Positions 1-14,167 are shown, numbered from the stretch's first letter. The stretch: 64,000 bases of DNA from Alkalispirochaeta sp. (GCA_965601925.1 OZ271854.1:3744001-3808000), one strand, 5' to 3'. Notes: generated from the letters alone by a model not told the origin. Program-made: numbers and translations.

Positions 1-1044
1 GTGCTCATGGCTAACAGGACCTTGCTATGGGCTCGCTTTGCTCTGACCCCGTTTTGCAACTTTCAATGCGAACACTGCTATGTTGGCGCGCGGTTCCCAA
101 ATGCGACGGGGCGGCGGCAACTCAGCACGGTTGAAGTTGAAAGTGTATTGACTCAACTGTCAAAGACGAGCTGTTTGTTTGTTTCCATCACCGGCGGCGA
201 GCCTTTGCTTCATCCGGATTTCGAACGCATCTGGAGGCACGCTTTTCGGTCGGGTCTTCGCCTTAACCTATTTACTAACGGCTCGTTGATCGATGATTCA
301 CATTTCTCGTTATTTAAGGAGTGTCCGCCTCATTCGATTCAGGTATCTCTATACGGGCATAGCGACGAGGCCTATCGGTTCTTCACGCGTTGTCGGGGAA
401 TGTCGGAACGCGTGTTGAATGCCATAGAAAGTCTATGCGCCGGCGGATTTTCGGTCACCGCTAGGTTCGTGGCTTCTAATATCACCGCGAAAGAAGCAAA
501 AGCGTCGCGGAACCATTTTTCCAGACTCCCGGGCGTTCGCTGGCTTCCACATCCAGTTCTGGATCCGTGTATGAGTGGCTGCGGCACTGATCCAAAGAAG
601 ATCCGGGTAGGTCTGGATGAATCCATTGAGATGCTGTTGGACGACCCCGATGCTCGACAGCAGCTATTGAACGACTATGACAGCCGTTCGCTGCCGAGAA
701 GCACGGAGTGGTACCATTGCTCCGCGGCCGATTTCTCCGTCGCTATCGATCCATTCGGCGGCTACAGCTTCTGCGATTACTCGATAGGTGACTTGGGTCT
801 CAATATTCGCGACGTAGATCTGTCGACCGGGTTCAACTCGATCATTCCTGACTGGATCGCGCGCGAGAACGCACGTAATCGAAAACCATCACAGTGTATG
901 GGTTGTGCCGCACGGGTGTTTTGTAAGAACTGCCCGCAAACTGCCAAGCTTGAATCCGGCCGCGACGGCGTAAATGACTATTACCATCAGTTCGCTTGTG
1001 CTCTTTACGATAGGCTTCGGGCACTGGACACGGCGAATGGCTGA
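1..1044 (+). CDS. Radical SAM/SPASM-domain protein (putative peptide maturase); may extend upstream of the window
   Basis: CxxxCxxC motif (CNFQCEHC), ITGGEPLL, FTNG, and a C-terminal SPASM Cys set (HCSA...SFCD...CMGCAARVFCKNCP...FAC). Confidence 0.9.
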   Translation: MLMANRTLLWARFALTPFCNFQCEHCYVGARFPNATGRRQLSTVEVESVLTQLSKTSCLFVSITGGEPLLHPDFERIWRHAFRSGLRLNLFTNGSLIDDSHFSLFKECPPHSIQVSLYGHSDEAYRFFTRCRGMSERVLNAIESLCAGGFSVTARFVASNITAKEAKASRNHFSRLPGVRWLPHPVLDPCMSGCGTDPKKIRVGLDESIEMLLDDPDARQQLLNDYDSRSLPRSTEWYHCSAADFSVAIDPFGGYSFCDYSIGDLGLNIRDVDLSTGFNSIIPDWIARENARNRKPSQCMGCAARVFCKNCPQTAKLESGRDGVNDYYHQFACALYDRLRALDTANG

Positions 1045-2002
1045 AGGTCAGTGGAAGCTACGGGCACTGCTGCCCGAACCCGAGCCTTCCCTTCGTGCAA
1101 TACTCCAAAGGCGCCCAGAGCGCGTTGTCGTGTTTTCGACAACACAGCGGTTCCGATGGGCGATTCACGACGGAAGCCGCTGGCGAGAGACGAGCTTCTA
1201 CCGCCATAATGACGAGTTGCGTGGCGTGTTGCACCACACGCGGATCGAGGAAGATAAGTGCTCCTGGTGCCTTTTTGAAGGTGTTGTTGGGCCGCAGGTT
1301 CCGGCAGCAGCAGGCCGATGGAGTTCAAATGCGGTCGATTTTATGTCGACCACCACCACGGCCGCCTGGGCAACGTTGGGAAGCGAGCCGGTAAATCTTA
1401 AGCGTCTTCACTTTCGCACGGCCGATCGGATCGGCGGAGCGGTTGGAACGATCCCTCGCGCACTGTCCGACTACTCCAACTTGCGTTTTGTAATCACGAA
1501 CGGAACTACGCACGAGGAGTTTGTAACATCGTCGCTCACGCCGGTCTCGGATCAATGGTTCGCAGACCGTTTGACACCTGATCTGTTCGTCTCGTTATGC
1601 GACTGGAATCTCATGCGACCCAATGAGTTGTCCAGCGATACGATCTGCAGAATCGGCCGCCTCGGGCGAGCGATGAGTGTTGGTGCCGAGTTCGAGTACA
1701 TTGATTGCTTACCTGCCCGTTCGGTGATCCGTGCGTTCTCAAAACACGAGATCTGGGAGTGGTCCGGATCAGATCGATTCGGGCTTGGAACGAGGTGTTG
1801 GATCGCCCTCCGCGAACCCGACTTGATCGCGAGTGTGACACCCGAGCTGCTGGCTGCTGGTGCCCTCACGCCAATCGGCAGTGTGGCGAGATTGTTGGAC
1901 GCGTTGTGCGGTTCGGACGAGTTCCCGGTTGGATTTACGTTAGGCGGTACGGTTGGAGTGATCTTCAGTTTCGATACCATCTTTTCTAGAGATGCGGGGT
2001 GA
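1037..2002 (+). CDS. Hypothetical protein in the RiPP-like cluster
   Basis: ORF of about 320 aa; the ATG at 1037 overlaps the rSAM stop (ATGGCTGA); no recognisable motif. Confidence 0.7.
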   Translation: MAEGQWKLRALLPEPEPSLRAILQRRPERVVVFSTTQRFRWAIHDGSRWRETSFYRHNDELRGVLHHTRIEEDKCSWCLFEGVVGPQVPAAAGRWSSNAVDFMSTTTTAAWATLGSEPVNLKRLHFRTADRIGGAVGTIPRALSDYSNLRFVITNGTTHEEFVTSSLTPVSDQWFADRLTPDLFVSLCDWNLMRPNELSSDTICRIGRLGRAMSVGAEFEYIDCLPARSVIRAFSKHEIWEWSGSDRFGLGTRCWIALREPDLIASVTPELLAAGALTPIGSVARLLDALCGSDEFPVGFTLGGTVGVIFSFDTIFSRDAG

Positions 2003-2006
2003 AGAC

Positions 2007-2372
2007 ATGAACACGGCGGTCGCCAACTATGAGGAACGTGGGATACGCGAGTACGCGAAGTTACTGCATCAGTGTATTTCTGACTTCGGGCGCGTTCGCA
2101 TGATCGCGTTCGGCAACAGCATGAAGCCGACGATAAGCAATCGTGACATACTCATCATTGAGTCTTGTAAGTTTGATTTTTTGAAAGTTAATGATATAGT
2201 GTTTTTTGTTCAAGCTAATTATAATATTCACAAAATACATAGAATTATACACAAGTATCAAGATTTCTTAATTGCAAAGGGCGACAACTGTGTACAAGAA
2301 GACATTCCAGTTCGACCCAACGAGATCGTTGGTCTTGTTGTCAAGACATACTCGGCAGGGACAAAGACGTGA
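2007..2372 (+). CDS. S24/S26-family (signal peptidase-like) serine peptidase
   Basis: GNSMKPTI (catalytic Ser), IHRII (His general base as in S26B), KGDN, and IVGLV motifs. Confidence 0.85.
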   Translation: MNTAVANYEERGIREYAKLLHQCISDFGRVRMIAFGNSMKPTISNRDILIIESCKFDFLKVNDIVFFVQANYNIHKIHRIIHKYQDFLIAKGDNCVQEDIPVRPNEIVGLVVKTYSAGTKT

Positions 2373-3520
2373 TCTTCGCAAGAATTGTCAATCACGCGGA
2401 AGCTCTACCCTTATGGCTTGCGCGTATGCGAAGAAACGATCCGTGCACCGTAATTCACGTTGACAAGCACTCTGACATGAGAGACCCGCTCAGCGAGGGA
2501 ATAAACTGCGGTACTTTTCTGCTAGCTGCGTTGCTCTCCGATCTGCCCATCCGCAAGGTTTGCTGGCTGTACCAGCCGGGCTTCATTCACGAGACATCGC
2601 TTGCCGTTTCGCGCGACGCACAGGACAGGTTCTGCAAACGGCTTTCGTCTCAGTTCGGAGGTGTCTCAGTTTCCACCGCTGGTGAAGCAACAGTGTTTGT
2701 GTTCGGTGGCAAGAAGATCGTCATCTTGCCGGTTTGGCACTTCAGCAGTGTTATGCGTGACGCGGCGTCCGACCCACAAGTCATAGTCGATATAGATTTG
2801 GACACTTTTGTGCGGAGTAACGGCGATCTCATACCAGAGATTGCCGGGCGTTCGCTTCAAGACGTAGTCGATGTCTGTGCTGCGAATCGCGATCAACTCG
2901 ATATTGTAACCCTCTGTACTTCTTCCGACTCTGGTTACTTCCCTTCATACTTTTCGTTTGTATCGGACTATGTGGAGAATGGCATTAAGAACACGACTGA
3001 CGCCCCACCCGGAGATCTTCGGCAAGTCGACTGGGAGTACCGGGCGGTCTCCAACACTGCGTCCGCAGAAGATCTCAGTGACGCGTTATCGCGGGCAGCA
3101 ACGCCACTATCCCACTGCGGGACTCTTATCAAGATCGAGCTTTCGCAATGGCTTCGACACGAGTCAGCACCTATTGAACCTGCGACGCGGCTCTTGGTCC
3201 AAGAACTGCCGCTGGGGTTGCGTCGGACAATGGGCTTTGGGTTTTTTCACGATCGAGAGGGGGGCACGCGGCTTGCCCTTCGAGCAGTCGTTAACAGCCT
3301 CTCAGTGGATCCCAACAACCCTTTCTTGATCCACAAGGCTGCCCAGCTTGCCAATGCGTTACTAGCACAGTTTAAGCAAACACAGTGTCGCGAAGGCACG
3401 AAATACAGTTTGGACGACTTTATTCATGATGGCTGGCAGGAAGACCCAGGGCTTTGGCAGTGGTACTTCGATGAGCTGTTGCAACAAGCCGCAATTGCGG
3501 GGGGACGAAATGCGGGCTGA
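2369..3520 (+). CDS. UPF0489 family / peptide arginase-like metallohydrolase
   Basis: HVDKHSD (DxHxD), INCGTFL, VDIDLDTF (DxDxD) and TLCTSSDSGY motifs; GTGA overlap with the upstream stop. Confidence 0.72.
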   Translation: MIFARIVNHAEALPLWLARMRRNDPCTVIHVDKHSDMRDPLSEGINCGTFLLAALLSDLPIRKVCWLYQPGFIHETSLAVSRDAQDRFCKRLSSQFGGVSVSTAGEATVFVFGGKKIVILPVWHFSSVMRDAASDPQVIVDIDLDTFVRSNGDLIPEIAGRSLQDVVDVCAANRDQLDIVTLCTSSDSGYFPSYFSFVSDYVENGIKNTTDAPPGDLRQVDWEYRAVSNTASAEDLSDALSRAATPLSHCGTLIKIELSQWLRHESAPIEPATRLLVQELPLGLRRTMGFGFFHDREGGTRLALRAVVNSLSVDPNNPFLIHKAAQLANALLAQFKQTQCREGTKYSLDDFIHDGWQEDPGLWQWYFDELLQQAAIAGGRNAG

Positions 3521-5216
3521 TCTAAATGGAGTCCAAGGTGAAAGGCTGTTCTCACTCCTTGAGTTCATACGGAATGCAAAGTCTTTGCGGCTTTTCCTAA
3601 CGGTTAGCCTACAGTTTATGTTTCTTATCGGGGTTTCCGTCGCAGCGTCGATGGTATTCGACTATGCATTTGTGCATGCCAACCGCTCGATGTTACTCCG
3701 CGCCTGCGCTCTCACGCTTGTCTTGTACTTTTGCTATGCTGTTGCGGACTATTTCTACAACCGGGTTGCGTTAACGGCAATCCATGAGTCTTTTGCGTCG
3801 ATCCTGCGGTCGCGTCTGTTGAGCGGCTTCATTAACGCGCCTTCATCGGCCTTTCATCAAATGTCCAGTGCCGAGGTGTCGAAATCGCTGACTACCGAAG
3901 TCAACCAGTACGCCGACTCTGTTCATCTGGTGGTTTCAAGCGCTGGCCAAGCGGTGCCGTTGGTTCTTGGCTTGGTTTACCTGTTGACTATTGCTCCGGT
4001 CTTAACCGTAGCGTATGTAGTAATCGGTCTCTTGCCGATAGTGATTATCGGTTTGTTGGCGAACAAGGAAGCAGAGTTGTCTTCACACCAGATTAAAGAG
4101 TATCGCCAACTCGCCGGTTTCTTGGAAGACGCAGTCGCTGGGTACACGGATATTCATGGTTTGAACCAGGTCGACAGTTTCGTTCGTACATTTGGAACTA
4201 CGAGCCGCAGGTTCGTTGTTCGTCGATTTCTTCGAAAGCAGAACATTGGTTCGGCCATCAACGCAGTTGGCTCGTTTTTCACTCGGATCGTCCCGTTGGT
4301 TGTTGCGGTCTGCTGGGCCCACCTGGAACTGTCAGACGTACAACCGGCGGACCTGGTAGCTTTTGTTTCTCTAACAATGTTGATGCCCTCGCTTACCGTA
4401 CTGGCGATATTGCGTCAGTCGCTTGTACGCTACCGCGTTCACGCAACGCACATCAAAGCTCGTCTAAAACTAGATCGCGAACTCTTCGGCAGTGTGGTAC
4501 CGACAACCGGTTCGGTCGAGTTCGCGGATGTTACGATTCGATCTCGCAACTCGACCATTGTTGCGGGCGTGTCGCTCTCAATTGAGGAGGGTGAAAAAGT
4601 TGCGATCTGCGGCCCGACGGGAGTTGGCAAAAGCCTCTTGCTGAACTGCCTGTACGATCCGGTCAGCGTTGAAGCCGGCGAAGTCCTGCTTGGCGGCGTC
4701 GATGCCAACGACGTCGATTGGAGTCAATTTCGCCGTCTTATCGCGTACGCCAATGACTCGCCGTTGATCCTCGACAGAACCGCGCTTGCCAATCTGTGCT
4801 TGGGCGTCGACATGCCGGCTTCTGAAGTGATCGCACGCATCACATCGATGAACCTCGGTGATGTAACTCGCACGATAATCGATGACGAGCATCAGATCGG
4901 ACAAGACATGCTCTCCACCGGAGAACGGCAAGCTCTCGGAATCTGCAGGGCGCTGCTGCGCAGATCGAAGTTGCTTTTGCTCGACGAAGCAACCGCCGCA
5001 CTGTCCTCCGATCTAGAACATGCACTCATGCATGAGGTACACAAATCTAACTCAACTGTCCTCTGTATCTCACACCGGATTGAAACAATTAGATCAATGG
5101 AAAGGCTCGTGTTGATTGTGGATGGTGGGATCGCGTTCGATGGTGACATGTCCCGCGCTCAAACGGTTCCCGTGGTCAACGAGTTTCTCAACGGAAACCA
5201 GGTGGTGAAATCGTGA
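3510..5216 (+). CDS. ABC exporter, TMD+NBD half-transporter (no C39 peptidase domain)
   Basis: N-terminal TM helices; Walker A GPTGVGKS, signature LSTGERQ, Walker B LLLLDE, ISHR switch. Confidence 0.88.
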   Translation: MRADLNGVQGERLFSLLEFIRNAKSLRLFLTVSLQFMFLIGVSVAASMVFDYAFVHANRSMLLRACALTLVLYFCYAVADYFYNRVALTAIHESFASILRSRLLSGFINAPSSAFHQMSSAEVSKSLTTEVNQYADSVHLVVSSAGQAVPLVLGLVYLLTIAPVLTVAYVVIGLLPIVIIGLLANKEAELSSHQIKEYRQLAGFLEDAVAGYTDIHGLNQVDSFVRTFGTTSRRFVVRRFLRKQNIGSAINAVGSFFTRIVPLVVAVCWAHLELSDVQPADLVAFVSLTMLMPSLTVLAILRQSLVRYRVHATHIKARLKLDRELFGSVVPTTGSVEFADVTIRSRNSTIVAGVSLSIEEGEKVAICGPTGVGKSLLLNCLYDPVSVEAGEVLLGGVDANDVDWSQFRRLIAYANDSPLILDRTALANLCLGVDMPASEVIARITSMNLGDVTRTIIDDEHQIGQDMLSTGERQALGICRALLRRSKLLLLDEATAALSSDLEHALMHEVHKSNSTVLCISHRIETIRSMERLVLIVDGGIAFDGDMSRAQTVPVVNEFLNGNQVVKS

Positions 5217-6907
5217 ACCTGCTTGCGAATACCTTTGGGTTGTACCGAAGCTACTACGTGAAGGATCGTGTGTGGCATGCGCTGTTTTTGGTCTTGATCG
5301 CTGTACGTGCGGCGGCCCTCTATGTCGTTAGTCGGTTGCTATGGGCAGGTACCGACACGCTGACTGATTTAGCGGTCGTTGCCGGCGCGATCGGATGCTA
5401 CTCGGTTTTGTCATTTCTCGGAGACATGGTCGCGTCCAGGTGGCTGATATACATGCCAATGAGTCGCATGATGGAGGCTCGATTCCGGGAAACCATCCGC
5501 ACGGATCACGAACAGTTCATGAACGACGGCCGATTTCGGGCCATATTTGCGACTCTCGAAGAGCCCCAGATGATCATCGAGCACGTTTGGGCCACATTTC
5601 AGTTGATTGGTCATGCCGCGGTTGCGTTGGTGATTACTGTAACGCTGCTGAGAGATTTCCCTTGGGCAACCCTCGCAGTAGCCGCGTTTGCGATAGCCTT
5701 TGAAGCGATGATCTTGCGGCGGACTCGGCAAGGCGAGCGCAAGTGGAGTGAGCTGTCCAGGCGATTTGAGTATTATCAGTCTCGTATCGTCGCTCGAATG
5801 CGAGCGATCCAGTCGATCAAAATCATGGGGTTGTCTCAAGCAGTCACCTCGGAGATTGAAAACGATGCCGGCGCATACACCCAGAGCGTCTCCAGAGCCA
5901 AAGGATTCGATGTGGAAATCAGAATTCTGTACGGTGTCAGGGCGTTCTTGGTTCAGATCTTATTCGTGTTACTCGCCGTGCTCTTTCATGCCAACTCGAT
6001 ACTCACGATTTCCATGGCGATAGCCGCTGTTTTTTTCGTCGACGCGTTTCAATCAAGCCTATCTACTGCGCTCGAATCGGCGCTTACATGGAACCGCACG
6101 CGTGGTGTCGTCAGTGAGTTTGTGACCCACTCTGACCAAGATCGTAAGCGAACGATCATCACACCGCGACCGTGGCAATCTGGGATTTCTGACACGTCGG
6201 TGGAGCTTCTGGATGTAACCGTGGTCGGAGGGCGAGATCAGGAACGAAGCCGTGTACTGGTGAAAGGGCTCAGTCTTTCGGCCAAAAATGGCGAGAACAT
6301 TGCGCTTGTAGGCCCGAATGGCGCCGGTAAGTCCACGCTCCTGCGAACCATCTTTGGCCTGTCAAACCCCGAGTGCGGTACGGTCGCGGCTTATGGTTCG
6401 GTCGGCGTCGGCCATTCGGAAAGTGCTAGTTGGGCTCTTTACATTGGCGATTCACCACATGTTTTCAACACCACGCTTGACGAGAATCTCAGGATGGGTC
6501 TCCCGGCCAGCGAGGGCAAAGTCTCCAATGTACTCCTCGGTCTCGAGCTCGGATCGTTAACCGACGGACTGTCTTCAGTTTCGACAGAGCGACTTGACCG
6601 CGATGCAAAAACGATTTCTGCCGGTGAGCGAGCCCGGGTTGGGTTGGGTCGTTGCCTGCTAAGAAGTAGTCGCTGCCGACTGCTGTTTGTCGATGAGACG
6701 TTGAGAAACTTAGACTCGAGAACTCGAATTCACGTACTCGAGTATCTGCTCTCAGCTTTTAGGGAAAGCACCGTGTTTATTGCCACGCATCAGGAAAACG
6801 TGATCGAGCGACTTGACGTCGTTTGGTACCTCGATCCGAATACCAAAGCGGTCGAGATCATGACGCCTGCCCAATATCTGAGCAGGTCGTTGCAAGCCAA
6901 TACTTAG
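5213..6907 (+). CDS. ABC exporter, TMD+NBD half-transporter
   Basis: TM helices; GPNGAGKS, ISAGERAR, LLFVDE, ATH; GTGA coupling to the previous gene. Confidence 0.88.
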   Translation: MNLLANTFGLYRSYYVKDRVWHALFLVLIAVRAAALYVVSRLLWAGTDTLTDLAVVAGAIGCYSVLSFLGDMVASRWLIYMPMSRMMEARFRETIRTDHEQFMNDGRFRAIFATLEEPQMIIEHVWATFQLIGHAAVALVITVTLLRDFPWATLAVAAFAIAFEAMILRRTRQGERKWSELSRRFEYYQSRIVARMRAIQSIKIMGLSQAVTSEIENDAGAYTQSVSRAKGFDVEIRILYGVRAFLVQILFVLLAVLFHANSILTISMAIAAVFFVDAFQSSLSTALESALTWNRTRGVVSEFVTHSDQDRKRTIITPRPWQSGISDTSVELLDVTVVGGRDQERSRVLVKGLSLSAKNGENIALVGPNGAGKSTLLRTIFGLSNPECGTVAAYGSVGVGHSESASWALYIGDSPHVFNTTLDENLRMGLPASEGKVSNVLLGLELGSLTDGLSSVSTERLDRDAKTISAGERARVGLGRCLLRSSRCRLLFVDETLRNLDSRTRIHVLEYLLSAFRESTVFIATHQENVIERLDVVWYLDPNTKAVEIMTPAQYLSRSLQANT

Positions 6908-7010
6908 TTAGGCGGCCGGAGGCTCGAAGAGCCGAGAAGCTCCGACTGATATCGGTGTTGATGTTCAGTGTGGACATCAATATCACGGACTTTGTTCCGA
7001 GGAGGCTGAC

Positions 7011-8738
7011 ATGTTGATACAAACCAAAGCAGTGAAGGATGCGTCTCCGGCGGATACACTGAGCCGGATACGCAAGGCGTTGTCCATTCTGAACCTCACG
7101 CCAGTGGAGACCAGTAACATGCTCGATCCAGCTGGCACGAGCTATTCCACTCGCATTGAACTGCCCGGTTTCCCGGTTGGCACCAATGGAAAGGGCGTTA
7201 GCCCCGAGCTGGCGCAGGCGAGTGCGTACGCTGAGTTCATGGAGCGGTTACAGAATCTGGCCTTGGCGTTTGCACCGTATATTGCGAACCCCCAAACCAT
7301 TGTGTTTCCGGATCAAGTGTCGTTGGCAATCGATCAGATTCCTGATTGGTGTTGGCAAGCGATCTCCGGAAGCTTAGATGTGAGAAACGAGCTTTTGACG
7401 ACTCCCGATTCCACGCACCGTGCCTGCGCGGTGCCGTACTACGATGTGTTTGGAAACCAGGTCGTGCACCTTCCTTTGGACTTGCTATTCTATGCTTGTG
7501 GTAGCAACGGGATGTGTGCCGGGAACACACCACAGGAGGCAGTACTTCAGGGGATGTGCGAGGTTCTTGAGCGGCACTGCGTGTCACGCGCGTATGAGCA
7601 ACGACTCCAGGTTCCGACGATCCCCCACAACCGCCTTCGCGGGCTCCATTCCTATGACATGATCAGTAAGATTCAGTCCCAAGGAATGGAAGTATTGGTA
7701 AAAGATCTCTCGCTGGGCGGCCGCTATCCGGTTATAGCCACGTATACCTTCGACTCGCGCACAGGTTTGGGTCGGCTGTGCGCAGGGTCGCACCCCTACC
7801 TCGATATTGCATTGCAGCGTTGCATCACCGAGACTTTTCAAGGCTCTGATGCGCCAAGTCAACGCGTCGATTGGGCATTTGAACCAGGCATGTCCCAACT
7901 ACACCTGGCCGAACGAATGAACTTTTTTGTAAATGGCTCTGGGTTTTTCCCTTCGTACCTGGTTCTTGACGACTCAGACGAGGGCCTGCCAGACGGCGCA
8001 TTCTTCGGTGACGCGAACGCAACGAACGCGGAGTTACTATCATGGGTTTCGCGGCGCTTGCAAGCAAGCGGGGCGAGAGTTTTTGTTCGCGACGTGTCGT
8101 TTTTGGGGTTCCCGTCGTACAACGTGTTCATCGATACCATGTCGGTCGTTCAACCCTTGGATACGCCTGGCGCATTTTTGGCATTGAACGGTGCAAGGAT
8201 ACGAGCGTCGATATCCAGGTTGGACGATGCCGACGTCGAGGCACTGTTAAGCGTTCAAAAGGGGCTCCGCCTCATAGCTGATCCTGCGTCAGGCGTTCGG
8301 GCTTTCGAGGATTTTCTTGCTCGGCGAGCAACCGCGGAGCGTCAGCAGACGATCGACTACCATGGACTGTCGGCTTGGACGTCCTTAGCAACCAAGGACT
8401 ATGCGCAGGGGGTTGTCGACCACTCAAGATACATGCAGACATTTGATACCAGCCGCCCGGACTACTTGATGCATCTTGCACTCGGATTGACACTAAAGAT
8501 GCTCGCCGAAGGTGCGTCAGACAAAACGATTCAGAGTTGTTTGCAGCGATACTACGGTGTACCCATCGCATTGTTGTTGTCCAAGTTTACGCGTGAGCCT
8601 CGTGCAGCATTGCGCTCTCTCTTTGTGGATAACCTGCTCCCGTTGGATCCGAAGTGTGAGCAGACGGTCCAGACTATTGTCAGCGCACTGCGCGATAACG
8701 CACTGCAGCAAGAAGACTTAGCAAACATATTCGCATAG
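7011..8738 (+). CDS. YcaO-family ATP-dependent peptide backbone-modifying enzyme
   Basis: NGKG...ASAYAEFMER, SNGMCAGNT..EAVLQGMCEVLERH, RCITETFQG; GGAGG SD; ends EDLANIFA (no PxP). Confidence 0.9.
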   Translation: MLIQTKAVKDASPADTLSRIRKALSILNLTPVETSNMLDPAGTSYSTRIELPGFPVGTNGKGVSPELAQASAYAEFMERLQNLALAFAPYIANPQTIVFPDQVSLAIDQIPDWCWQAISGSLDVRNELLTTPDSTHRACAVPYYDVFGNQVVHLPLDLLFYACGSNGMCAGNTPQEAVLQGMCEVLERHCVSRAYEQRLQVPTIPHNRLRGLHSYDMISKIQSQGMEVLVKDLSLGGRYPVIATYTFDSRTGLGRLCAGSHPYLDIALQRCITETFQGSDAPSQRVDWAFEPGMSQLHLAERMNFFVNGSGFFPSYLVLDDSDEGLPDGAFFGDANATNAELLSWVSRRLQASGARVFVRDVSFLGFPSYNVFIDTMSVVQPLDTPGAFLALNGARIRASISRLDDADVEALLSVQKGLRLIADPASGVRAFEDFLARRATAERQQTIDYHGLSAWTSLATKDYAQGVVDHSRYMQTFDTSRPDYLMHLALGLTLKMLAEGASDKTIQSCLQRYYGVPIALLLSKFTREPRAALRSLFVDNLLPLDPKCEQTVQTIVSALRDNALQQEDLANIFA

Positions 8739-8819
8739 TGTTGTCTCTCGGTTCGGTGAGCATCGGCGAAACGCAATGTACCAAGTGATCGAGGAAATGC
8801 GCGGCTGAAGAGGATAAGT

Positions 8820-9497
8820 ATGAGACCCTCAGACTATGCCGACTACAGCTCAATTTACGACATTGTTGGCGATAGTGCGTTAAATCCGGAAGTATCTTCA
8901 TTCGTGCGGAAACTCGCTGAGTATCTGCCGGCAGGTGCTCGAGTCGCTGATATCGGCGCCGGCACGGGATACTACAGTCGAATGCTGCTATCGCTGCGAG
9001 CCGACATATCCATAACACTCGTCGAGCCGAGTACACACATGATACGCGAGATTGAACGCAATCGTATCCCGCGGATGGATGTGCTGCAGCACACATGGGA
9101 GTCGTTCAGCGACCGCGATTGCCCAGTCTCGGTGATGGTGTTCATGTACTCCCTCTATGCGATCTTTCGCTCTCTTGAGCACTTGTTTGAGTCGTTGCGT
9201 ACCTATCTAAACGAACGAGAGTCCGTCTCTAACATCGCATTCTTCCTCATTGGTGGTCGGAGGGACCTGGCCGCCGCACGAACGAGAGTTGCTTCGGGGC
9301 TTAGGCGTGTCGGATACAGCTCCCAGGAGGTAGCAAAAATCTGGGCTCGTTACGAACGTTTGTTGCTTCTGTTTAATAGGCGCCTTGCTCACGGCGAGTT
9401 TTGCATATTCTCGCCACAAGAAATCACTTCGGTCATGCTACAGCTTGGTTTCAGTCTCTCGTGGATGGATACCCACGGGATGATCTGGTCCCGTTGA
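8820..9497 (+). CDS. Class I SAM-dependent methyltransferase
   Basis: VADIGAGTGY motif I, acidic LVEPS motif II; AGAGGA SD. Confidence 0.85.
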   Translation: MRPSDYADYSSIYDIVGDSALNPEVSSFVRKLAEYLPAGARVADIGAGTGYYSRMLLSLRADISITLVEPSTHMIREIERNRIPRMDVLQHTWESFSDRDCPVSVMVFMYSLYAIFRSLEHLFESLRTYLNERESVSNIAFFLIGGRRDLAAARTRVASGLRRVGYSSQEVAKIWARYERLLLLFNRRLAHGEFCIFSPQEITSVMLQLGFSLSWMDTHGMIWSR

Positions 9498-9804: not shown

Positions 9805-11300
9805 ATCTATAGGAGAAACACGAGCGGTTTTGGCACTGTTTGAGCTAAGAAACAGACACACGTTGCCCGAAAAGCGTAACGGAGGAACGTGTCAGTTGAG
9901 GCGATCGAGGTCGATCCCAGGTGGTGACCGCCCGATCTTGACCAGATGTTGGAGAATTTTCCTGAGTTCGTCGGGATCCTCGATGATCGCAATAACCTTC
10001 ATCTCAGCGCCGCACTTTGGGCACACCAAGGGGTCAACCTCGTAGACCTTCACGAGAAGTCGTGCCCAGGCGCGTTTGCGCGCGTCGACGGTGACCTCAT
10101 CGGCGTCATCCGACAGCGGTTCGTACCCCAAGTCGTCACTGCCGGCATTGTTTTGATGAGTCGCTTTCCACCCGTCAGGTGCCCGCTCGGTGACCCAAGG
10201 CATCTGTTCCCGTCGCCTCTTCGTGCGCGAGGCATACAGTCCGTATCGTCGGACAAGCTGGAGTCTCCTCGGTGGTATGTGCTGCGTCAACTCAGCTAAA
10301 AAATCCAAGGCGTCGAACAGGTGGACGTTCTGCTTGAAGTACTTCAAGTACGTCGTGTGAAAAAGGACTCGCCCCTTGAACGGTTCGTAGCGGATCTTCT
10401 TCAGCGACAGCGGAGGCCGAGCGGTGTACTCGGCGAGACTTTCCTGGGAGGGGTCGTCGAGGATACGCCCGCTGTTGTCGATGCTGAACCCGGAATGCTT
10501 CCAGGACAGAAGGCTCCGGGCAAAATCTTCATTGAGTAGTTCGCGCTCCAGCAGGAGCTTGATCACCCGACGGCGGAAGACCTCAACCATGGATTGGAGC
10601 CCAGAGAACGGGATGTAAAGAAGGCACCCACTTCATCAAAGCCACCCTCGAGAACGATCGCGTGGAAATGGGGTTTCCACCGCAGCACGTCTCCGAACGT
10701 CTGGGGCGCGACGACTATTCCGGTAAGGAGCTTTCTGCCGGCGGCTTCGTGGTAGAACTCCCGCAGGATGTTGTAGATCATACGAGACACCCCGGCGAAG
10801 AGGCGGCGGTCGCGGCGAAAGAACGGGCGGAGCGCCTTGGGCATCGTGAACACGAGTTGTCGATACGGTAGCCCCAGGAGGACCTCGTTAGTCAGATGCT
10901 CCGCGAAGAGGATCGTTCGCTTCCGGCTGCATGATGGGCAAAGATAGAAACCCTTGCACGAGAATGGCCGGAAATAGTCGTGTCCGCATTCAGGGTTGGT
11001 GCAGCGGATGCGCGCCACGCCCTGGAGATAGTCGCCACACGTGGAGAACCGCTCCCCGACTTGCTGGATGAGCTCAAGGCGGTACATGCCATAGGTGGCG
11101 GCGTACTTCTCATCGTATTGCTCGCGGAAGTCATCGAAATGGCATTCGAAGATGGTATAGAGCTCGTTTCGACCGCGCGGGACGTACCGTTTCGCTCCCG
11201 ATATTGACGAGACAACTGCGGTGCTCACCTGTACTAAGACCAGAAAAAGAACGCGGTTGCTTCAGATGGGGCGCGTATTCATCGAGCGCCACATAACATG
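9805..11300 (-). mobile_element. IS91-family insertion sequence (ends approximate)
   Basis: Transposase as above; minus-strand TTTCTCCTATAG at 9807-9818 resembles the oriIS TTCCTATA motif downstream of tnp. Right end not identified. Confidence 0.55.
9892..11228 (-). pseudogene. IS91/ISCR-like rolling-circle (HUH) transposase, frameshifted
   Basis: Zn-binding FSCKGFYLCPSC, HUH motif KPHFHAIV, LAEYTARP, RRYGLYA, CPKCG. Split into ORFs 10563-11228 and 9892-10590 by an apparent 1-nt loss at ~10617-10619. Confidence 0.85.
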
Positions 11301-11692: not shown

Positions 11693-12148
11693 ATGAAGGT
11701 TCGTGAAGCAACAGTTGACGACGTAAAGCCAATTGTTGGGCTTCTATCAGCCGATGAGTTGGGTTGCGATCGAGAAGACGCGGGCGAGGCTATCTCACGG
11801 GAGTACTACGAGGCGTTTCGGCGCATCGCCGCGGATCCGAATCAGGAGTTGGTTGTAGCGGAGGACGACAGGCACGTCGTCGTCGGAACACTGCAGATTA
11901 GCTACATCCAGTATCTTACGTATCGGGGTGGCCTTAGAGCGCAAATCGAAGGAGTAAGGGTTCGCGAAGACAAACGAGGCGGAGGTTTGGGAAAGCAGTT
12001 GCTCGAATGGGCGATTGGTCGAGCAAAAGAGCAGGGTGCACACGTCGTGCAACTCACGTCTGACAAGAGGCGTCCGGATGCAATTGCTTTCTACGAACGC
12101 CTGGGATTCACGGCTTCTCACGAAGGAATGAAGCTGCACTGTCATTAA
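11693..12148 (+). CDS. GNAT family N-acetyltransferase
   Basis: IEGVRVREDKRGGGLGKQL acetyl-CoA motif A, AIAFYERLGF; GAGGAG SD. Confidence 0.92.
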   Translation: MKVREATVDDVKPIVGLLSADELGCDREDAGEAISREYYEAFRRIAADPNQELVVAEDDRHVVVGTLQISYIQYLTYRGGLRAQIEGVRVREDKRGGGLGKQLLEWAIGRAKEQGAHVVQLTSDKRRPDAIAFYERLGFTASHEGMKLHCH

Positions 12149-12478: not shown

Positions 12479-14167
12479 CTACAACAGCCACCGTCCTCCC
12501 CAGGACAGAATCAGCGCGAACAGGACTGCGAATCCCGCCTGTCGTGCGAGGAGTGTGAACGTTGCCTTCCAGCCCGTCTCACGACCGATCGTCATTGCGG
12601 TCACCAGACACGGCAGAAGTACACCGGCCAGGTAAACCGCCGTGAGCGCTTGTGCCGCCGTCAGCGGAAAAGATGTACCGGCATTCGCCGCCAGTAAGAT
12701 GATTCCGTCTTTGCGCACCGAAGCGAGCACTACGGGCAGGGCTGCGTGCGGGGGAAGGTCGAATAGACCCATCACCGGACCCAGAAATCGAACGGCCAAG
12801 TCGAGGGCGCCGACGTGAGCCAATAGCGATGCAACGATACAGATCGCGATAAAGACCGGCATTGCCAGCAACAGGAACTGTCGAACCGTGCCCCGCACTT
12901 CGCGCCACAACGCCGACATCCCGGGCCATTGCATAAACGGTCGGCTGGGTGTCATCAGGATGTTCAGTGGGCTGCGTGCCTGTGCACTCGAGGTAACACG
13001 CAAGTACATGAGCGTCGTGACGAGCAGGTACGCCATGAACAGCCACGTCAGCAATGCGGCCGACCTTCCCGTTGCTGCCGCAGCCGCGGACAAGACGGCA
13101 AGGGTGGCCGGCAGTTGGTAGCTGCATGCCGACCCGAACGCGACGGCGGCAACGGCGGAGCCTCGCGAACAGGCTGAACAGGACCGCGTACCGATCACCG
13201 CCGGCACGTTGCAACCGAACCCCATCATCACGCGGGCCACATCTCGTCCGCTTAGGCCGAAGGGGCGCACGAGCGGATGGAGCGCGACGTTGATTCGCTC
13301 GATCAATCCGCTCGCCTTGTACGCGCCGAGAATCAACGCGAACAGCAGCACCGTGGGGAGCGCCCACACCAGCAGGAACGGTCCCATATTCAGCAGACCG
13401 TAACCGAACTCACCGTGCCGCGCCGTAAGCACGACGCGCAGCCAGCTCGGCCACGTGGTGTTGACGGTGGCGATAATCGATTCGAACCAACGTGCCACGA
13501 TGGGGTGAAGGAGATCGGCAACGGTATTCGCGCCGAAGATCGTCGCCACGAGGGGCAGGACGAGCAGCATAGTCGCCAGAAGCGGGCCGGCAATGCGATG
13601 TTCCAGCCACCCCGGCGTCGGCTCGATCCGCCACGTCGCCCGGGCCGTCAGCGATTCACGACGGAACGTCGACGGGTTGCGTGTCGCGTGGGCGATTCTC
13701 TGACGATCGCGACCGGAAAGCCTACGAGCGTCGAGGGGAATGAAGTCGACGCCCGCCTCCGCCTCGAGGCGTTCGATCGCATCTTGCGGCGCGTCACCCG
13801 GTTGAACCTTGTCCCAGTGCGTGACGACCACAGCGCCTCGTTTGCCGACAACGAGCGGCAACATATCGCGCAAATCCCGGTCCAAGTGTGTCGCTTGGAC
13901 CACCAAGAGGACGACGTCGTGTGCCGCCAGGGCATCCAGGGCCAGTCGCGTCGTCTCCGTGTCGGAGCTGCGGAGAATCCCCGGTGTATCGATGTACTCG
14001 ATGTCACCGGATCGATAGCGTTCGACCACGACGGTCGAGCCGCGGAAGTTCGCCTCACCTGCCGAGCGGCCCGACAAAGATGAAATTAGTTGCGATTTGC
14101 CCACACTCTCCTTGCCGACAACGAGGATGGTGCGCATTTGCGACGGCGCGAGTGCGGTACGCCTCAC
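12479..14167 (-). CDS. FeoB-like GTPase / nucleoside-recognition (gate) membrane protein
   Basis: G1 GKESVGKS, NFRGSTV, G3 DTPG, G4-like THWD; gate motifs MGFGCNVPA and LLPCLVT; GTG start after GGAG chosen. Confidence 0.85.
   Translation of the reverse strand: MRRTALAPSQMRTILVVGKESVGKSQLISSLSGRSAGEANFRGSTVVVERYRSGDIEYIDTPGILRSSDTETTRLALDALAAHDVVLLVVQATHLDRDLRDMLPLVVGKRGAVVVTHWDKVQPGDAPQDAIERLEAEAGVDFIPLDARRLSGRDRQRIAHATRNPSTFRRESLTARATWRIEPTPGWLEHRIAGPLLATMLLVLPLVATIFGANTVADLLHPIVARWFESIIATVNTTWPSWLRVVLTARHGEFGYGLLNMGPFLLVWALPTVLLFALILGAYKASGLIERINVALHPLVRPFGLSGRDVARVMMGFGCNVPAVIGTRSCSACSRGSAVAAVAFGSACSYQLPATLAVLSAAAAATGRSAALLTWLFMAYLLVTTLMYLRVTSSAQARSPLNILMTPSRPFMQWPGMSALWREVRGTVRQFLLLAMPVFIAICIVASLLAHVGALDLAVRFLGPVMGLFDLPPHAALPVVLASVRKDGIILLAANAGTSFPLTAAQALTAVYLAGVLLPCLVTAMTIGRETGWKATFTLLARQAGFAVLFALILSWGGRWLL

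Follow-up and report, generated by a model that had tools for sequence, protein, structure and literature searches.

The present analysis concerns a stretch of 64,000 nucleotides of Alkalispirochaeta sp. (GCA_965601925.1 OZ271854.1:3744001-3808000; hereafter referred to as the window), in which positions 1-9497 carry eight genes, all co-oriented on the + strand. An operon of 11 genes is obtained once the genes for a precursor peptide, a PqqD protein or RiPP recognition element (RRE) and a first radical S-adenosylmethionine enzyme (rSAM1), all within 1.63 kb 5' of base 1, are counted. The locus is regarded as a real, intact and rare operon for a peptide that is ribosomally synthesised and then modified post-translationally (RiPP), with a new precursor family and an apparently undescribed set of enzymes. 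The pathway very probably acts on the precursor of 70 amino acids (aa), and a probability of roughly 0.6 is given to its overall outline, namely an exported RiPP with Cys-thioether crosslinks, ornithine (Orn) at core position 9 and a backbone change made by a YcaO protein. Genome coordinates refer to the contig G000:C1, L002 is the upstream stretch and L012 is a second locus described below. The operon comprises the following features.

Genome 3742371-3742583 (L002 8371-8583; 1629 to 1417 bases before base 1, outside the window), + strand: precursor peptide, 70 aa
Genome 3742591-3742621 (L002 8591-8621), + strand: hairpin of 12 bp with a T-rich tail, between the precursor and RRE genes
Genome 3742652-3742945 (L002 8652-8945), + strand: stand-alone PqqD/RRE, 97 aa (PF05402, 33.2 bits, cut-off 23.4)
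Genome 3742920-3744014 (L002 8920-10014; the last 14 bases are window 1-14), + strand: rSAM1, 364 aa (PF04055, E 4e-17)
7-1044, + strand: rSAM2, 345 aa (PF04055, E 1.4e-21; C238-x12-G-x4-C256 and Cx2Cx5Cx2C)
1037-2002, + strand: protein without a family, 321 aa, with a counterpart at the same position in L012
1992 (or 2007)-2372, + strand: S24/S26 peptidase (TIGR02228, E 3e-12; Ser43 in GxSMKP, His83 in HRI, Asp98 in KGDN)
2369-3520, + strand: peptide arginase of UPF0489/PF12640 type whose C-terminal half is TPR-like, assigned from motifs, profile and fold
3510-5216, + strand: ABC exporter subunit 1, membrane and ATPase domains, no C39 domain (PF00664 and PF00005; 22% identity to the first ABC protein of L012)
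5213-6907, + strand: ABC exporter subunit 2 (PF00005, CydC-like match from residue 135; 20% identity to the second ABC protein of L012)
7011-8738, + strand: stand-alone YcaO, 575 aa (PF02624, E 8e-49; NF040716 over residues 8-517)
8820-9497, + strand: class I S-adenosylmethionine-dependent methyltransferase (PF13489, E 2e-8)

None of the 11 reading frames is interrupted, and the genes in the middle of the operon overlap or adjoin one another. An initial annotation, made from the window sequence alone, had listed the eight co-oriented genes and five junctions (1037/1044, 2002/2007, 2369/2372, 3510/3520 and 5213/5216), every one of which proved correct when the open reading frames (ORFs) were re-checked. 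It had also placed the precursor and the PqqD/RRE gene 5' of base 1, where both were found; rSAM1 upstream of base 1 and the conservation of the 1037-2002 gene are observations that go beyond it. One read contig of 13,739 bases in each of two runs spans the whole operon with zero differences, an agreement which is not independent support because both runs share one sample.

The start codon of the precursor gene is closely preceded by GGAGG. Core positions are numbered here from the Cys common to both loci as +1, so that the precursor has YEAP at -20 to -17, Thr-Ala at -2/-1 and a predicted core of 28 aa that begins with CGSGLLTNR and has a second Cys at +16. It matches the 54-aa peptide of L012 without gaps from -20 to +9 (E 3e-9, 46% local identity), with an alignment score of 96 that was equalled by none of 1000 shuffles. 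Common to both precursors are YExP, Leu-10, Phe-7, Val-4, TACGSGLLT and Arg+9, followed by a second Cys at +16 or +17 and then Asp/Glu-x-Gly. Different codons are used for 13 of the 16 identical residues between -20 and +9, including a Ser encoded by TCC in one and AGT in the other, and the conservation is therefore at the protein level. Arg+9 is the one core Arg common to both precursors (Glu+10 is found in the window precursor only), in keeping with the short Arg-containing ORF that had been anticipated upstream. When the 5.05-Mb genome was searched with the leader/core pattern, itself derived from the precursor, a single short ORF matched, which is the precursor. The hairpin that follows, with a z value of -4.2 and with an equivalent at the same place in L012 (-5.1), is likely an attenuator or a stabiliser of the mRNA, and the L012 counterpart of the PqqD/RRE protein scores 25.3 bits with PF05402.

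Lasso precursors carry Thr at -2 and a small first core residue, both seen also in the window precursor, and lasso leaders and RREs are similar to those found here in the YxxP recognition motif and the stand-alone RRE. A lasso peptide was rejected on the grounds that no cyclase or B2 protease was recognised in either operon, that +9 is Arg and that no Asp/Glu is common to both cores at +7 to +9; matches to PF00733 lie over 100 kb from the cluster in the window genome, and none was found in the second genome (G061). YxxP has been characterised as a motif that RREs recognise (PMC12710340), and lasso-type RREs adjoining rSAMs without a cyclase are already known (PMC7470986).

The short ORF might instead encode a small lipoprotein, lipidated on Cys+1 at L/I-T-A-C and anchored in the membrane, with the enzymes modifying its tail. 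LTAC and ITAC in the two precursors fit the lipobox pattern, and residues 33-54 give a weak PHROG 'lipoprotein' match (E 0.16). However, neither peptide has a hydrophobic signal region (best 19-residue hydropathy 1.24 and 1.25), charged residues are present at -8 (Lys, window) and -9 (Asp, L012), and the YExP at fixed spacing, the RRE, the soluble protease and the dedicated pair of ABC proteins each speak for a cytoplasmic leader; this explanation is therefore considered very improbable.

The second locus was identified by scanning the species-representative genomes with a 49-row YcaO alignment, for which at least 615 stretches matched, 500 were relatives and the best 80 of the 500 were kept. 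The full gene set was present in one of these best 80 loci, L012, which belongs to a metagenome-assembled genome (MAG) titled 'uncultured Brachyspira sp.' and whose YcaO has the lowest E-value among them. Its genes follow the order of the window locus, i.e. precursor, PqqD, rSAM1, rSAM2, counterpart of the 1037-2002 gene, S26 peptidase, arginase, two ABC proteins and YcaO; thus ten of the 11 genes are common and in the same order, with the positional counterpart being the best match of each window protein. The L012 genome belongs to the same phylum as the window genome and to a different class, the protein identities range from 19 to 41%, and the GC contents of the loci are about 53% (window) and 19.6% (L012). 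The prediction of a RiPP cluster is thus borne out by a precursor, an RRE and co-conserved genes, the co-conservation extending to one other locus only. An ORF of 104 aa lies 5' of the L012 precursor (L012 62-376) and contains a QGLDTSCG stretch that resembles a C39 peptidase motif; it has no C39 match in Pfam and is possibly a remnant.

Other searches indicate that the cluster is rare. The YcaO of the window locus was found in none of the 60 relatives searched, rSAM2 among 99 genomes of its order only in its own (0/98 others), and the complete locus in one of eight genomes of the class of L012. In a sample of 401 genomes of the phylum, the rSAM2 profile matched six, two of which are its own sources; the other four (at most 100.5 bits) have no cluster genes within about 4 kb (all four) or 14 kb (two). 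With a degenerate pattern of the 9-residue motif, 108 matches were obtained in metagenomes and 2 in viruses; on translation these yielded neither precursors nor adjoining cluster genes (0/110) and represent look-alikes of methyltransferase motif I and chance matches. No match was obtained when viral sequences were scanned with the alignments of the precursor and of the rSAM2 C-terminus, and a tblastn search of plasmids gave only generic rSAMs, with about 27% identity at best among the 15 records listed out of 167.

The two rSAM genes overlap, the end of rSAM1 running into the start of rSAM2. rSAM1 has CxxxCxxC and a C-terminal Cx2Cx5Cx2C, a Cys pattern kept in its L012 homologue (29% identity), and rSAM2 is 35% identical to its own (E 6e-92). 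The initial annotation had called these enzymes SPASM rSAMs; Pfam SPASM matches neither of them, but both nonetheless have the SPASM-type Cys pattern. Their NCBIfam scores are all far below the cut-offs (best 64.8 bits), and the best PDB match is SkfB (E 1e-14, core domain only). Two SPASM-type rSAMs together with two core Cys common to both loci represent a trait of sactipeptides and ranthipeptides. W, F, Y and H are all lacking after Cys+1 in the window core, and no aromatic residue is common to both cores; a triceptide or cyclophane product was thus rejected for want of a conserved core aromatic, a rejection valid only if the predicted cut site is correct.

For the 1037-2002 protein, no family or database homologue was obtained in Pfam, NCBIfam and homologue searches, a word-index search returned only the protein itself, and the Atlas gave no usable match. 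Its L012 counterpart (315 aa) is 19% identical over 88 aa (E 2e-5), a similarity equalled in none of 300 shuffles; judged by its sequence it is a true but faint counterpart. A structure model from the two-row alignment was unusable (pLDDT 28.9).

Ser, His and Asp serve in catalysis in S26/SEC11 signal peptidases, and all three are present in the window S26 peptidase and kept in the L012 copy (41% identity). The best PDB matches are SEC11C and SEC11A. The description as a signal-peptidase-like protease thus holds for the SEC11-like residues but not for a membrane anchor, as no membrane segment was found in either copy (best 19-residue hydropathy 1.17 and 1.33). The protein is a soluble SEC11-like enzyme and a candidate leader peptidase.

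The arginase falls below all library cut-offs (PF12640, E 0.036, 14.9 against 27 bits; NF052474, E 5.7e-5, 22.7 against 350 bits; PF00491, E 0.012), and it was therefore assigned from its motifs together with searches by profile and by fold. PF12640 proteins are characterised by EEH(N/H)EAF, DXHXD and LDIDLDYF (PMC12703449), to which VNHAEAL, DKHSD and VDIDLDTF correspond here, with His9, Asp32/His34/Asp36 and the two Asp of DIDLD as ligands. Six metal ligands have been defined in OspR, in which Glu11 was proposed to stabilise the guanidine (PMC10028609); all six Mn ligands are present in the arginases of both the window and L012 (P0123). OspR is also the top PDB sequence match of the 5-row arginase profile (8BRP, E 7e-11) and the top Foldseek match of the arginase model (E 3e-4). 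The earlier assignment to the UPF0489/PF12640, OspR-type arginases thus stands on motifs, profile and fold, though not on library scores, and the protein is a divergent relative whose activity is likely that of OspR. Among 1.84 billion representatives the best non-self match is P0123, which is recorded on 10 contigs; two fragments, P0124 and P0125, also matched and hint at further members of the family. A word-index homologue search returned only the arginase itself, and the Atlas leads were UPF0489/TPR only, all below 0.9. PF12640 was detected in three of the 401 phylum genomes by a search that missed the window's own arginase. Canonical PF12640 proteins occur in two other spirochaete genomes (L206 and L207), in open frames of about 380-390 aa.

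The YcaO protein has an EcYcaO-like architecture, intact ATP-site motifs and no C-terminal PxP, the latter being absent from all 111 members of the family. Two different chemistries are known for characterised stand-alone YcaOs of broadly this kind, both of which take their nucleophile from outside: ItfB makes a backbone amidine from ammonium (PMC11002830, PMC10352776), and EcYcaO uses sulfide and thioamidates uL16 in E. coli without TfuA (PMC13063428). Among the 20 of the best 80 loci that were detailed, YcaO relatives often lie in RiPP clusters, namely with double-glycine (GG) leaders and rSAMs (L010, L019, L039), with Nif11/NHLP (L014, L036), of lanthipeptide type (L026) and of DD(I/V)LF type (L013).

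A YcaO acting as a stand-alone cyclodehydratase would form a thiazoline or oxazoline at Cys+1, Ser+3 or Thr+7, with the RRE or the 1037-2002 protein as its partner and the rSAMs acting elsewhere. The invariant TACGSGLLT offers Thr, Cys, Ser and Thr among small residues, the conserved 1037-2002 protein is available as a partner, and bottromycin biosynthesis provides examples of stand-alone D proteins lacking a C protein (PMC4603692). On the other hand, no ThiF/E1-like C protein or flavin dehydrogenase was recognised among the 11 window-locus and 10 L012 genes, and with the YcaO family profile the match to E. coli YcaO (4Q84, E 2.5e-92 over 7-546) is far better than those to LynD, TruD and MusD (E about 1e-16). 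A C-terminal PxP, which is lacking here, is a marker of azoline-forming YcaOs, a rule that was not found in PMC4603692 when checked. This explanation as a whole is held to be unlikely; on the condition that the locus is a RiPP pathway, an azoline-forming YcaO of stand-alone type would be compatible with the lack of partner genes of linear azole-containing peptides and thiazole/oxazole-modified microcins (LAP/TOMM), at odds of about one in four.

The installation of a backbone thioamide without TfuA, as by EcYcaO on uL16, would lead to a thioamidated Orn peptide. TfuA (PF07812) is encoded in neither of the two cluster-bearing genomes, and a YcaO-TfuA thioamitide was rejected on this count. The closest solved structure is that of EcYcaO itself, an argument in favour of the TfuA-free route, but no sulfur-carrier gene was recognised in either operon and the isoelectric points of the two YcaOs differ (5.2 in the window and 8.5 in L012), an unusually low value being a mark of the uL16-modifying YcaOs (PMC13063428). 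A thioamidated product is thus considered rather improbable, somewhat more so than the cyclodehydratase, and an amidine remains the preferred, though tentative, assignment.

The two ABC proteins likely form a heterodimer. The methyltransferase, whose GC content at third codon positions (GC3, 0.60) is like that of the remaining block, had been counted as part of the enzyme set; it is present in the window locus but absent from the 1 kb between the L012 YcaO and the contig end, and elsewhere in that genome only a generic match of 42 residues was found. Methylation is therefore not a feature of the family, and the enzyme is best regarded, from this distribution, as an accessory local to the window genome.

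The pathway described below is based on gene content, order, motifs and conservation, its reactions, expression and activity being predictions, and the odds of the individual steps are conditional on the locus being a RiPP pathway. The hairpin would keep the precursor mRNA in excess over the enzyme mRNA. The stand-alone RRE would, with high likelihood, bind the YExP leader and present the peptide to the enzymes. The two SPASM-type rSAMs may then crosslink C+1 and C+16/17 to backbone or side-chain carbons, a step favoured by a little; epimerisation or aliphatic C-C bonds are the alternatives, and thioethers are preferred over a cyclophane because the window core has no aromatic residue. The Mn-dependent arginase would probably hydrolyse Arg+9 to Orn. 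The YcaO product is the least certain step: with ATP, the enzyme may activate a backbone amide in the invariant CGSGLLT, and attack by an amine would give an amidine, which is the single most likely outcome at somewhat below even odds, followed by an azoline as a doubtful outcome, a thioamide as a slightly more doubtful one and any other product as improbable. The soluble S26 protease could cut after Thr-Ala and free Cys+1, for which the balance is narrowly positive, and the ABC pair would export the product. In the window genome only, the methyltransferase would add a methyl group, possibly on Orn.

Several points weigh against this outline. Only two complete loci were found across all the searches, and every residue called invariant and every motif-based deduction is accordingly drawn from n=2. 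The cut after Thr-Ala is suggested by the fixed spacing and by general leader rules, of which the spacing is the sole basis in the data. In the arginase, OspR Glu11 is replaced by Asn8, with Asn in all five aligned rows, and the model is weak (mean pLDDT 59.7, TM about 0.34-0.42); since HDAC-like and other ureohydrolase folds come close behind OspR in the Foldseek list, another hydrolytic reaction is possible. A C-terminal Cys motif seen in 76 of 111 YcaO relatives occurs in neither cluster YcaO, an Fe-S-type Cys domain at the C-terminus being a trait expected of ItfB-type enzymes; the FastTree tree has no supported clade uniting the window and L012 proteins, both of which are long branches, and the grouping of the window YcaO with ItfB is putative. 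ACGSG resembles an azoline substrate as well, and the lack of TfuA is compatible with a thioamide because EcYcaO thioamidates without it (PMC13063428). Finally, the 1037-2002 gene could carry the defining chemistry.

rSAMs have been described together with PF12640 arginases (flm, ohk, pbs) and with stand-alone YcaOs (itf, bottromycin; PMC4603692). A full-text literature search, with most subscription papers outside its coverage, revealed no cluster joining a peptide arginase, a YcaO and an rSAM, nor the precursor motif or the present protease pairing; no matching characterised cluster was thus found, in accordance with the novelty claimed for the cluster at the outset, and since coverage was incomplete, 'undescribed' is provisional. 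The supplementary text of PMC13063428, in the parts available, does not mention arginase, UPF0489, PF12640, Spirochaet, Brachyspira or PF05402, and the available parts of PMC13174530 and PMC10288494 have no bearing on the cluster.

The flm and ohk clusters (DD(I/V)LF orphan RiPPs; FlmR, OhkR; PMC12703449) share with the present one an rSAM/SPASM protein, a PF12640 arginase, peptidases, ABC proteins and short precursors with a core Arg. They differ in S41/S8 instead of S26 peptidases, in an unrelated precursor and in arginases that measure about 310 aa and have no TPR-like half, and the available parts of the PMC12703449 supplement name no YcaO, PqqD or methyltransferase. In a Bacteroidales MAG (L013 7850-21492), three DD(I/V)LF-type precursors (12611-13603) adjoin a YcaO that belongs to the family of the window YcaO, together with an rSAM, S41 and S8 peptidases and two B12-binding proteins, arginase being absent among the ORFs scanned; since the DD(I/V)LF family is described together with arginases, YcaO and arginase may co-occur in loci of this type. 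The itf cluster of Bacteroides thetaiotaomicron (ItfB YcaO, ItfD rSAM; PMC11002830, PMC10352776) likewise combines a stand-alone YcaO with a SPASM rSAM, and loci of comparable layout are seen among the window YcaO relatives (L010, L019 and L039). It has a C39-peptidase transporter and a C-terminal ITF motif in its precursor, with no arginase named in the available parts of the two papers, whereas the window cluster is distinguished by its YExP leader, its separate RRE, a pair of rSAMs, a soluble S26 protease and the lack of a common core aromatic; ItfB was compared by its description. In the biphenomycin-like pbs cluster (PbsE; PMC12257519), a PF12640 arginase that contains TPR acts on a single conserved Arg of the core and is accompanied by an rSAM crosslinker, as proposed here, and the Orn so formed is modified by another enzyme; the pbs cluster differs in its MNIO, B12-dependent rSAM, aromatic crosslinks and TldD protease, and YcaO is unmentioned in the parts available. 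Two further types of YcaO locus were observed: a single locus of a Marinifilaceae MAG (L026 2775-21661), in which four YcaO genes lie together with an rSAM, LanC, the N-terminal domain of a LanB and two GG-leader precursors that are nearly identical, and relatives of Desulfotomaculum and Desulfoscipio (L014, L036), in which tandem YcaO pairs are accompanied by short proteins of Nif11 type, a methyltransferase and an rSAM of the B12 type (Pfam on L014 only).

The initial annotation had likened the set of rSAM, arginase and methyltransferase to the logic of enteropeptin (kgr) biosynthesis, which indeed has these three in the cluster and Cys and Arg in the core. The comparison does not hold further: in enteropeptin KgrD belongs to PF00491, the methyltransferase is Fe-S-dependent and Cys is adjacent to Arg (PMC12703449), whereas in the window cluster the arginase is of PF12640/OspR type, the methyltransferase is class I and not conserved, and Cys+1 and Arg+9 are eight apart. 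An enteropeptin-type product was rejected on these three counts. Bottromycin biosynthesis involves methylating rSAMs and a follower peptide, and is not known to use an arginase. It is similar to the present system in its stand-alone YcaO, rSAM genes, methyltransferases and amidine chemistry, and differs in having two YcaOs (PMC4603692).

The host genome is a single contig of 5.05 Mb with 60.1% GC, and has three FlaA matches above cut-off, consistent with a spirochaete. Per-gene GC in the block is 0.43-0.57, compared with 0.601 for the genome, and the GC3 values of 0.50-0.63 compare with a median of 0.736 in the genome (5th percentile 0.622; 1450 long ORFs). The block is thus foreign by composition, and both its lower GC relative to the core genes and the insertion sequence (IS) at its border, as described in the initial annotation, were confirmed. 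Its borders are marked by two features.

Genome 3741890-3741941 (L002 7890-7941; 2110-2059 bases before base 1), - strand: att-like relic of a tRNA-Val(CAC) (3' half), left edge of the low-GC block
9892-11228, - strand: IS91-family transposase in two ORFs (PF04986, PF14319, NF033538), right border of the block

The relic matches the 3' end of an intact tRNA-Val(CAC) (genome 3456232-3456305, 285 kb away) in 49 of 52 bases and lies about 430 bases left of the precursor gene, with IS elements further left. It may have had a role in integration; with the relic and the IS elements on its left side, the cluster looks like an acquired island. Flanking IS91, IS3-, IS481- and IS1182-type elements, the tRNA relic and the absence of the locus from all close relatives searched would also be expected if acquired genes had come together by chance, or were decaying, in an IS-rich island that encodes no functional pathway. 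The intact frames, the overlapping or abutting middle genes and the retained catalytic motifs oppose this, and the order and content conserved at such low protein identity in another class largely refute chance assembly, which is hardly credible.

A 47-base piece of IS91 transposase at L002 7060-7106, identical to window 10219-10265 at 43 of 47 positions, adjoins an IS3-type element; IS91-like sequence is thus present on both sides of the cluster, and further fragments occur elsewhere in the genome. Nested elements at L002 3037-6977 comprise IS1182-type and IS481-type transposases, with IS3-type ORFs straddling the IS481-type gene, the family names being assigned in part from Pfam domains. Past the IS91 element, a GNAT acetyltransferase (window 11693-12148), without a counterpart within the L012 contig, is probably outside the cluster. 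A 797-aa AAA_13 protein at L002 500-2893 (about 38-47% GC; PF13166, E 3e-132) is a possible defence gene, this family including RloC-like anticodon nucleases. A phage-like run (portal-, protease-, capsid- and tape-measure-like by eye) at genome ~3714000-3731000 (L204) ends about 11 kb left of the precursor.

A bolder reading, speculative and considered unlikely, would make the locus a new RiPP class, in which the side-chain amine of Orn9 serves as the YcaO nucleophile and closes, at the expense of ATP, an amidine ring onto the CGSGLLT backbone. Lasso peptides close their ring where the common Arg+9 sits. The ring would occupy the position of the lasso macrolactam, on a leader of lasso-like type, and two thioethers made by the rSAMs would brace it, with the SEC11-like soluble peptidase releasing the ring peptide and the 1037-2002 protein acting as an added catalyst.

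The locus provides a complete and directly testable RiPP pathway and a new precursor family in spirochaetes, though its reach is limited by its rarity, with two loci, one of them from a MAG. The enzymes are all remote members of useful families: the arginase bears TPR-like repeats and an Asn for the Glu11 of OspR, the YcaO is EcYcaO-like and TfuA-free, the two SPASM rSAMs have no common aromatic substrate, and a soluble SEC11-like protease would be an unusual leader peptidase. If Orn does act as the YcaO nucleophile, ribosomal peptides would be cyclised here in a manner that is new; otherwise the cluster would still represent a new hybrid family that includes one conserved protein without an assigned fold.

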